DNA of 15,874 nucleotides from a virus (lineage: Duplodnaviria > Heunggongvirae > Uroviricota > Caudoviricetes), in the IMG/VR virus record IMGVR_UViG_2526164613_000013, one strand, 5' to 3'. Under the pieces are notes generated by a model. The model ran no database searches. It worked only from the letters and a program-made list of their open reading frames with translations, and was not told the DNA's origin. The first letter of the stretch is position 1, and each line of letters begins with the position of its first letter. A program made the position numbers and the translations under genes. Shown here piece by piece: positions 7,107 to 8,096 of the stretch.

Positions 7107-8096
7107 TTATATACGTCCTTTAAGATAAGTCAGTCCTGGATGAAACCAGTAAGCCGGCACTTTTTTAAAGGGCGGATTATCAAAATCACGAAGAAGAGCC
7201 TCCCGCACAACTGCATCCTTGTCCGCACCACTGGCCAGCGCTTCAATCTCAGCAGCTATCTGCAGATATCCCATGCAACGACCAATGCACTTCATCAGCC
7301 CCTGCTTTTTATTGTTCTTCAGGTAATCAATGGCAAATTCAATGAGCTCCTCACTATGCTGGTGCGATGGCGGTGTTACTTTTCCATTTTCTGAGATGGT
7401 TATTTTCCCAGCATCACCGGATACAACAAAGGATGGCCGGTTACACTCCCATTCCAGGTCACTGAAATTATCATTATGAATACTGAAACACTCTGCGAGA
7501 TTTCTGCTCATCACTTTCCGGCAATAATCGTAAAACGCAGCAAACTGCTCATCGCGGCGTTTTTTTTCAGGCTGCTGAAGATGCTCTTTCAACCATGAAG
7601 CGCAGCTTAGATTCGCCGCGCGATCAGGAATAGCTTCTTTCATTTCGTCTGCTGCAAGCACCTCATTTTTTGTTGGGGTGCTTTTTTTCAATTCAGCGAT
7701 ATAGCACTCCAGTTTTTCAATACGCGATTCAACATCATCTTTTTCTGACCGCAGTGTTGACGGCGGCATCTTCAGAGAACAAGTAATTCTTCCCGGTAGC
7801 TTTCCTTTGTAGGTTATCAATACATCCTGCGCATCTAAAATTACGGGGCGCTTTTCCGGTGACGGTTCATCCCCTTCGCATAACCCGGCAACAATATCCA
7901 TGAAAAACTGCTTCGCCTGTTTTTTCGCCTCAGCTTCGTAGAACTCCAGCGTGGCACCTTCAGTACGGTCAAGACTAATCGCCACATGTGGCAACAACAA
8001 CGACGGATGCCCGCCAATTTCAAGTGCCACAGTAACAGCAATCTTATCCGGGTAATTATTTATCTCTTTAACAACCAGTTCGTATTTTTTCTTCAT
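7107..8096 (-). CDS. Uncharacterised 329-aa cytoplasmic protein inserted between holin and endolysin (moron of unknown function)
   Basis: Intact ORF starting 4 nt after the holin stop, with GGGGAG 9 nt upstream of the ATG. No TM segment or signal peptide; central charged, probably coiled-coil segment (SEKDDVESRIEKLECYIAELKK); lower GC than flanking lysis genes. No family recognised. Confidence 0.7.
   Translation of the reverse strand: MKKKYELVVKEINNYPDKIAVTVALEIGGHPSLLLPHVAISLDRTEGATLEFYEAEAKKQAKQFFMDIVAGLCEGDEPSPEKRPVILDAQDVLITYKGKLPGRITCSLKMPPSTLRSEKDDVESRIEKLECYIAELKKSTPTKNEVLAADEMKEAIPDRAANLSCASWLKEHLQQPEKKRRDEQFAAFYDYCRKVMSRNLAECFSIHNDNFSDLEWECNRPSFVVSGDAGKITISENGKVTPPSHQHSEELIEFAIDYLKNNKKQGLMKCIGRCMGYLQIAAEIEALASGADKDAVVREALLRDFDNPPFKKVPAYWFHPGLTYLKGRI

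Follow-up and report, generated by a model that had tools for sequence, protein, structure and literature searches.

What is a gene for a protein of 329 amino acids (aa), cytoplasmic by its sequence, doing between the holin and the endolysin of a prophage? The question is posed by the Caudoviricetes record IMGVR_UViG_2526164613_000013, a stretch of 15,874 nucleotides (nt) referred to below as the window, in which an open reading frame (ORF) of 990 nt occupies positions 7107–8096 of the minus strand. A prediction made earlier from the sequence alone (the original prediction) had described this ORF as intact, which we confirm, and also as unrecognised and unusually placed, which it is not. The ORF is, with very little room for doubt, an intact long-form member of the YdfR family (DUF1327, PHROG 1085), and this family is a late-operon accessory gene of lambdoid Shiga toxin (Stx)-type prophages in Escherichia, Shigella and Salmonella.

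Family, position and modular architecture

Pfam family DUF1327 (PF07041) matches residues 1–100 of the protein (E 8.5e-39, 132.1 bits against a cut-off of 25), and PHROG 1085 aligns with it from end to end, residues 1–329 corresponding to positions 1–296 of the 296 in the profile (E 2.5e-180). PHROG 1085 is of unknown function, as are all eight PHROG families matched by the protein. A Pfam scan of the 329 aa found nothing besides DUF1327, the NCBIfam scan gave no meaningful match, the defence-protein models of PADLOC-DB v2 returned no family at E values up to 1, and no similarity to a lysis family, holins and antiholins included, was detected in PHROGs or Pfam. YdfR of E. coli K-12 is 41% identical to the ORF protein over residues 1–74 (BLASTP E 1e-17), and the motif DRxEGAxLEFYEA is invariant among the aligned N-terminal (N) domains. 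The identical 329-aa protein is encoded on at least 999 public contigs, under names that include 'YdfR family protein', 'Phage protein' and, in strain CB9615, G2583_2458. The family as a whole is very common: of 5426 complete E. coli genomes, 2389 (44%) contain DNA resembling the ORF and 491 (9%) the long form (at least 80% of the ORF length present as DNA), and the family occurs in Stx-converting phages as well. The ORF, its segments and the flanking lysis genes are as follows.

7107–8096, minus strand: intact long-form YdfR-family ORF, 329 aa, ATG start, stop codon at 7107–7109
7842–8096, minus strand: DUF1327 (PF07041) N domain, residues 1–85, with three beta strands and then a long helix in the predicted structure
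7734–7841, minus strand: linker, residues 86–121, predicted disordered (predicted local distance difference test, pLDDT, below 50 over residues 70–120)
7683–7733, minus strand: short zipper-like helix VESRIEKLECYIAELKK, residues 122–138 (alignment A1; helix predicted at 119–138)
7569–7682, minus strand: optional 38-aa insert, residues 139–176 (alignment A1)
7467–7568, minus strand: conserved helical segment EKKRRDEQFAAFYDYCRKVMSRNLAECFSIHNDN, residues 177–210 (alignment A1; helix predicted at 181–205)
7110–7433, minus strand: conserved C-terminal (C) domain, residues 222–329 (alignments A2 and A3; AlphaFold2; substitution ratios given below)
8101–8307, minus strand: S21-type class II holin of the pinholin family, 68 aa and stop (PF04971, 'Bacteriophage P21 holin S', E 3.5e-32)
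8106–8111, minus strand: Shine-Dalgarno-like GGGGAG within the 3' end of the holin gene, read from the sequence and ending 9 nt before the ATG of the ORF
6531–7064, minus strand: endolysin (phage lysozyme, 177 aa; PF00959, E 1.4e-24) with an N-terminus like that of signal-arrest-release (SAR) endolysins

The position proved to be the usual one in this lineage. We surveyed 83 loci encoding the C domain, 80 from IMG/VR and three from GTDB species representatives. Wherever the upstream flank was long enough to tell (81 loci), it contained a holin, an endolysin lay 37–66 nt downstream in 83 of 83, and in E. coli loci the gene begins 3–4 nt behind the holin; the Qin prophage of K-12 has the same layout. 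The original prediction had asked for a survey of this kind, and the constant slot between holin and endolysin holds for the E. coli loci, whereas relatives in Salmonella lie between the Q antiterminator gene and the holin, upstream of the latter and split from it by an antisense gene. Intact fusions of the N and C domains made up 41 of the 83 loci (10 of 329 aa, 25 of 296 aa and six of 268 aa); 26 others held a stand-alone C-type gene, seven had the N and C parts in different frames, seven had shorter ORFs and two ended at a contig boundary. In other prophages an antisense ORF of 86–104 aa, one example of which is labelled 'DUF1823 containing protein', is present between the YdfR-type gene and the endolysin (L008 3501–4689, L002 3584–3844 and L003 3552–3866), and an antisense DUF1883 gene stands at the equivalent place in the Salmonella loci; the window has no such ORF.

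Within its cassette the ORF starts 4 nt after the holin stop codon (8097–8100) with GGGGAG ahead of it, as the original prediction had stated, and its stop codon is 42 nt from the endolysin ATG, one less than the 43 nt given there. The Shine-Dalgarno sequence is kept as GGGGAG or GGGGGG across related loci, and the tight spacing suggests that translation of the ORF is probably coupled to that of the holin. A simple consensus scan of the coding strand between 6300 and 8700, which is weak evidence, found no sigma-70-like promoter. Terminator-like hairpins with T-runs bracket the holin-ORF-endolysin unit only at 8388–8362 (minus strand), just upstream of the holin, and at 6440–6408 (minus strand), about 90 nt past the endolysin stop; seven terminator-like sites were observed over 6300–8700 against 2.3 expected from shuffled sequence. 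The ORF thus appears to be co-transcribed with the holin and the endolysin and, having no promoter of its own and starting 4 nt after the holin stop, is expected to be expressed from the start of Q-dependent late transcription. The claim that its GC content is below that of the flanking lysis genes also stands (45.3% against 52.2% in the holin and 54.7% in the endolysin), and GC at third codon positions (GC3) follows suit (0.44 against 0.67 and 0.61). Such a difference in base composition from the neighbours is typical of a moron, a prophage cargo gene expressed independently; the promoter and terminator of its own that would flank a moron were not found around the ORF. No transmembrane segment was detected in the protein, in agreement with the cytoplasmic location that had been proposed, the highest Kyte-Doolittle average over 19 residues being 1.09.

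Both lysis genes are of familiar types. The holin is named class II holin family protein by the Prokaryotic Genome Annotation Pipeline (PGAP) in the identical loci of strains DEC5B and CB9615, and the endolysin begins, like SAR endolysins, with a weakly hydrophobic stretch rich in Ala and Gly. In the region of the holin start (8308–8319, minus strand) the window reads IHQMEK, where related alleles read MYQMEK and have a dual start giving products of 71 and 68 aa. In phage 21 the longer holin product is the antiholin. Judging by these start codons, the window holin would be made in the 68-aa form only and may have lost antiholin timing control.

The long form is assembled from modules that are joined in several ways. 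In the zipper-like helix, I125, L128, I132 and L135 are spaced 3-4-3, and this segment is also where stand-alone C-type proteins begin. The 38-aa insert that follows is present in forms of 329, 325, 330, 305, 246 and 211 aa and absent from those of 296, 287 and 268 aa. The homopolymers of seven and eight bases reported earlier are an A7 run (7682–7688) and an A8 run (7560–7567) on the coding strand, the former at the start of the insert and the latter just past its 3' end. The middle region is replaced in alleles of 268, 328 and 333 aa, a further module is found in P0084 and in P0042 (305 aa), and forms of 211, 183 and 112–114 aa stop early. The short YdfR of O157 Stx phages corresponds to the long form ended inside the linker; locus L018, for example, encodes a YdfR of 114 aa that ends at the corresponding point. 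No Pfam family was found for the alternative modules fused to DUF1327 in the 305-, 328- and 333-aa forms, and these fusion partners therefore offer no functional clue. Stand-alone C-type proteins of 185–213 aa, made up of the zipper helix and the C domain, occupy the same slot in many prophages. Prophages of the L008 type, a common one, have the order reversed, with a C-type gene followed by a separate 75-aa DUF1327 gene that has its own ribosome-binding site. The product of the ORF is accordingly not a small single-domain YdfR of about 100 aa; at 329 aa it carries an additional conserved C domain.

The conserved C-terminal domain

No match to the C domain was found in Pfam, NCBIfam or PADLOC. 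Its AlphaFold2 model is confident (pLDDT 89.6; predicted template modelling score, pTM, 0.82), with a three-stranded sheet and four helices in the predicted fold, and comparison of the model with the PDB and BFVD gave no significant match. When PDB sequences were searched with the entire protein and with a profile of the C domain, nothing below E 0.17 came up. For the full-length protein the AlphaFold2 model was poor (pLDDT 51.6), and a Foldseek search with it found no match in the PDB at E ≤ 0.001; the N domain reached a pLDDT of about 63–87 over residues 1–70, and the central helices (119–138, 143–172 and 181–205) were predicted at low confidence. The remote-homology and structure searches that the original prediction had called for thus identified the N domain as DUF1327 and left the C domain without a match in the PDB or BFVD. 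A match to a well-characterised family known at this position was to count against that prediction; the family is indeed known in this position, but it is poorly characterised.

The C domain has a narrow distribution. Only 29 hits resulted when residues 113–329 were compared exhaustively by HMMER with 1.84 billion representative proteins, a search with the C-domain profile retrieved 99, and all C-domain hits with a source name came from Escherichia, Shigella or Salmonella. Those in Salmonella share about 30% identity with the ORF protein and keep the C domain, in which G272, R273, L278, Q279, A281, P309, K311, W317, P320 and Y324 are invariant. In most of them an N-terminal domain is present too, and hhalign supports its homology to DUF1327 (probability 88.7%, E 2.6e-6). 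Because the layout of N domain plus C domain is shared between E. coli and Salmonella, this architecture, as judged from the sequences of both genera, is probably ancestral, and the short YdfR proteins would then be truncations. In Salmonella enterica loci L005 and L007, the C-domain relatives are encoded next to ParE/helix-turn-helix and HicA/HicB toxin-antitoxin pairs and a DUF4406 gene.

A metal site formed by His and Cys residues of the C domain was considered and rejected, as C274 and H245 are not conserved. The highly conserved segment DFDNPPFK (residues 304–311; 7164–7187, minus strand) resembles the acidic C-terminal tip of the E. coli single-stranded DNA-binding protein (SSB), which reads DFDDDIPF. 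This likeness is probably coincidental, since the motif is internal and, in the model, packed against helices with a pLDDT above 90.

What is new here is modest: a conserved C domain without a match in the libraries searched, an N-plus-C architecture shared with Salmonella, a slot in which modules are shuffled, and a mis-annotation in RefSeq. The C domain merits the definition of a family, and the annotation can be corrected.

Coding status and possible functions

In seven of seven RefSeq genomes examined, the PGAP annotation is limited to codons 1–112, which are labelled a pseudogene ('YdfR family protein, incomplete, missing C-terminus'); the remaining in-frame coding sequence, about 650 nt, is unannotated (window 7107–7760, minus strand; L001, L004, L012–L016). 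Other NCBI records call the full 329-aa protein 'YdfR family protein', and the complete genome of the Stx2a-converting phage Stx2_95 has an intact 329-aa copy, 94.5% identical, in the same place. The truncated-pseudogene call looks like an annotation artefact. Pairwise ratios of nonsynonymous to synonymous substitution rates (dN/dS), calculated by the Nei-Gojobori method against diverged alleles, were 0.18–0.36 for the C domain and 0.26–0.56 for the N domain; the value of 0.4–1.0 for the middle region is inflated in part by aligned non-homologous inserts. These ratios, the confident fold of the C domain and its conservation across genera point to a coding gene under purifying selection. The original prediction had inferred selection from the ORF having stayed intact through its homopolymers among frameshifted neighbours. 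The inference of selection is borne out by dN/dS, but the argument from intactness was rejected: the chance that a 990-nt ORF escapes eight indels in 15.9 kb is about 0.60, or 0.67 when only single-base runs of at least five are counted.

It is very improbable that the gene is a decaying or chimeric pseudogene whose long ORF is a functionless chance read-through. Such decay would fit the PGAP call in all seven RefSeq loci examined and the several frameshifts of the window prophage, and broken versions do exist, both in strain CE10, where the copy is divided into 162 aa and a separate 161-aa ORF, and in the seven of 83 surveyed loci with N and C in different frames. It is difficult to reconcile, however, with the intact 329-, 296- and 268-aa fusions in 41 of the 83 loci, with the 491 complete genomes carrying at least 80% of the length, or with a C domain that is predicted to fold confidently, has a dN/dS far under 1 and is retained with its N domain in Salmonella at about 30% identity; the naming of the whole 329-aa protein in other NCBI records is a further point against it.

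As to function, a search of the literature for DUF1327, PF07041 and ydfR found functional work in one paper alone, and this provides the only experimental lead (Göpel et al., RNA Biol 2026; PMC13232886). Residues 1–72 of K-12 YdfR were recovered there in a two-hybrid screen with RNase G as bait, and the same fragment bound the N-terminal, catalytic half of RNase E as well as RNase G in the two-hybrid assay; full-length Strep-tagged YdfR co-purified Rne(1-598) together with DNase-resistant nucleic acid (PMC13232886). The N domain of the window protein aligns with this RNase E-binding fragment. By analogy, we put forward as a tentative possibility that the ORF encodes a cytoplasmic adaptor acting on RNA decay in the late phase, and not a core component of lysis. 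The adaptor would be cytoplasmic, probably dimeric, and made from the start of late transcription; its N domain would attach to RNase E, at the catalytic half of the enzyme, and possibly to RNA, its C domain would engage a second partner, and the two together would alter the decay or processing of RNA in the late phase. What we infer here is that the window allele binds RNase E, that it dimerises, that it affects RNA decay, and what its C domain does. The N and C modules are either fused, in E. coli and Salmonella alike, or encoded by adjacent separate genes in the same slot, and this pattern of fusion, fission and adjacency suggests that both act in the same process. The location of the Salmonella relatives outside the holin-endolysin slot argues for an accessory gene of the late region and against a part of the lysis machinery.

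Several points weigh against such an adaptor. Only the 103-aa protein of K-12 is known to bind RNase E, as seen in overexpression, two-hybrid and co-purification experiments, and this protein is just 41% identical to the window allele. Overexpression of YdfR altered few transcripts (PMC13232886). Dimerisation and the arrangement of the domains are guesses, given the low pLDDT of the full-length model. Forms with the N domain only (103–114 aa) or the C domain only (185–213 aa) are common, and the modules may act independently. The tight and conserved placement behind the holin in E. coli could also reflect a link to lysis. A more specific version of the proposal, in which DUF1327 docks on the catalytic half of RNase E and the C domain, with a fold not described before, recruits a specific RNA or protein target, forming a two-part system that reprogrammes host RNA decay at the onset of late transcription or counters an RNA-based defence of the host, seems improbable to us as it stands. 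If true, such a system could affect the stability of toxin and lysis mRNAs, because in Stx phages the same transcript carries the stx genes.

Two other functions have to be weighed against the RNA-decay adaptor. They cover the roles suggested in the original prediction (lysis regulator, anti-defence factor or phage-exclusion protein), for which we found no positive support. That the protein is cargo of an arms race, either an anti-defence factor in lytic growth or a superinfection-exclusion or abortive-infection factor, is doubtful, though it finds some echo in the data: GC and GC3 lie under those of the neighbours, the modules in the slot are shuffled, split, fused and truncated to an extreme degree, the family is lineage-specific and confined to few taxa, and its Salmonella members sit beside the ParE and HicAB toxin-antitoxin modules in the accessory region from Q to the holin. 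The high dN/dS of the middle segment (0.4–1.0) would fit as well, but derives in part from the alignment of non-homologous inserts. PADLOC gave no hit, neither domain, to the extent that their models tell, resembles a known anti-defence fold, and a role in the prophage state is made less likely by the lack of a separate promoter that could drive the gene in the lysogen.

That the protein regulates lysis timing from the cytoplasm is unlikely. Such a regulator would set the moment of membrane depolarisation by binding either the pinholin, at its charged cytoplasmic C-terminal tail, or the SAR endolysin that has yet to be released. The position is in its favour: the E. coli gene is always 3–4 nt after the holin and 37–66 nt before the endolysin, and the probable translational coupling would fix its amount relative to the holin. 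With its upstream Met of the dual start missing, the window holin could be helped by another regulator, but long YdfR forms also stand beside dual-start holin alleles, and compensation is thus not indicated. The occurrence of N-only, C-only, fused and broken versions in the slot is a poor fit to a tuned stoichiometric regulator, the protein has neither a transmembrane segment nor similarity to a lysis family in PHROGs or Pfam, and its Salmonella relatives are upstream of the holin with an antisense gene between. To our knowledge, S21 and R21 of phage 21 lyse the host with no YdfR-like protein, which also speaks against a regulator of this kind. On the other side, a genetic screen, as far as its citation in PMC13232886 goes, scored ydfR as important for envelope integrity. 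Since the gene appears to be transcribed together with the genes for lysis and, in Stx phages, for the toxin, any effect on the turnover of RNA or on the timing of lysis would have consequences for the release of toxin. The current picture of lysis by pinholin and SAR endolysin is not overturned.

Prophage context and comparison with known systems

The sequence of the window is that of a lambdoid prophage of E. coli O55:H7; strain DEC5B is the closest genome (99.9% identity), and identity to CB9615 is 99.2%. Its genes are arranged in the order Q antiterminator, tRNA cluster, STnc100 small RNA (sRNA), NanS-like esterase, holin, ORF, endolysin, Rz and terminase genes. No stx genes were found in the window despite this gene order, which is typical of Stx phages; its Stx-phage-like layout downstream of Q and its lack of stx mark the element as a relative of Stx phages, without stx, within the O55:H7 lineage. 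One further feature belongs to this region.

10694–10884 and 10961–11210, minus strand: STnc100 sRNA and tRNA cluster (Rfam; PGAP)

The sRNA is a full-length Rfam match (138 bits) adjoining the cluster of three tRNA genes, which comprises Arg-TCT, Arg-TCG and a tRNA with a CAT anticodon (Ile according to PGAP).

The frameshifts among neighbouring genes that had been noted earlier are real: in DEC5B, PGAP flags frameshifts in the genes for the NanS-like esterase, TrmB and RusA, and the large terminase and DUF968 genes are each split into separate ORFs in the window. Eight indels are private to the window relative to both DEC5B and CB9615 (positions 1037, 2072, 2367, 3966, 8591, 12079, 13240 and 14723), and all with one exception are 1-nt changes in the length of short single-base runs; they could be sequencing or assembly errors in such runs, or real slippage or decay. 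The gene for a NanS-p-like sialate O-acetylesterase with DUF1737, SASA and DUF6645 domains (8599–10471, minus strand) is broken near 9199 into two ORFs, one of 439 aa and one of 235 aa; the window has a 22-bp segment there that is missing from CB9615, whose gene is intact. In a small ORF downstream of the spanin gene Rz (minus strand, about 5223), CB9615 has three extra copies of the 10-bp unit TAGCGGCATT, an in-frame difference of 30 bp in a tandem repeat.

Phage proteins that target RNase E or the degradosome and reshape RNA turnover in infection are represented by T4 Srd, phiKZ Dip and T7 gp0.7. The role proposed for the ORF protein is the same, but these proteins act early and in virulent phages, whereas the ORF belongs to the late operon of temperate phages; no homology to them was detected, the match to Srd of Acinetobacter phage 133 in BFVD being non-significant (E 3.0). 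T4 RIII and P1 LydB are cytoplasmic regulators of lysis that, like the ORF protein, are soluble and encoded with or near holin genes. They differ from it in that the ORF protein shows no homology to them and the Salmonella members of its family are not holin-adjacent. RapZ, a cytoplasmic adaptor on the catalytic half of RNase E, offers a functional analogy only, as the two proteins have no similarity in sequence or fold and YdfR has no known RNA target; K-12 YdfR was nevertheless put in the same 'group II' interaction class as RapZ (PMC13232886).

Among true relatives, K-12 YdfR (b1555, Qin prophage, 103 aa), the only one for which RNase E and RNA binding have been demonstrated (PMC13232886), is likewise encoded between the genes of a class II holin and a lysozyme, with the arrangement essQ-(4 nt)-ydfR-rrrQ. 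It consists of the N domain and a short unrelated tail, while the window protein, three times as long, adds the linker, the zipper-like helix, the insert and a C domain of 108 aa. Stx2a95_290 of phage Stx2_95 has the same full-length architecture and the same flanking genes, and the 296- and 268-aa E. coli alleles of PHROG 1085 are intact with the same N and C domains; whole middle modules differ among these three (the 38-aa insert or alternative segments), and all are annotated as hypothetical only. The stand-alone C-type proteins (185–213 aa) and the short N-type YdfR proteins (112–114 aa) of O157 and Stx phages share the slot, the spacing and the modules, and each represents one half of the architecture found in the window.

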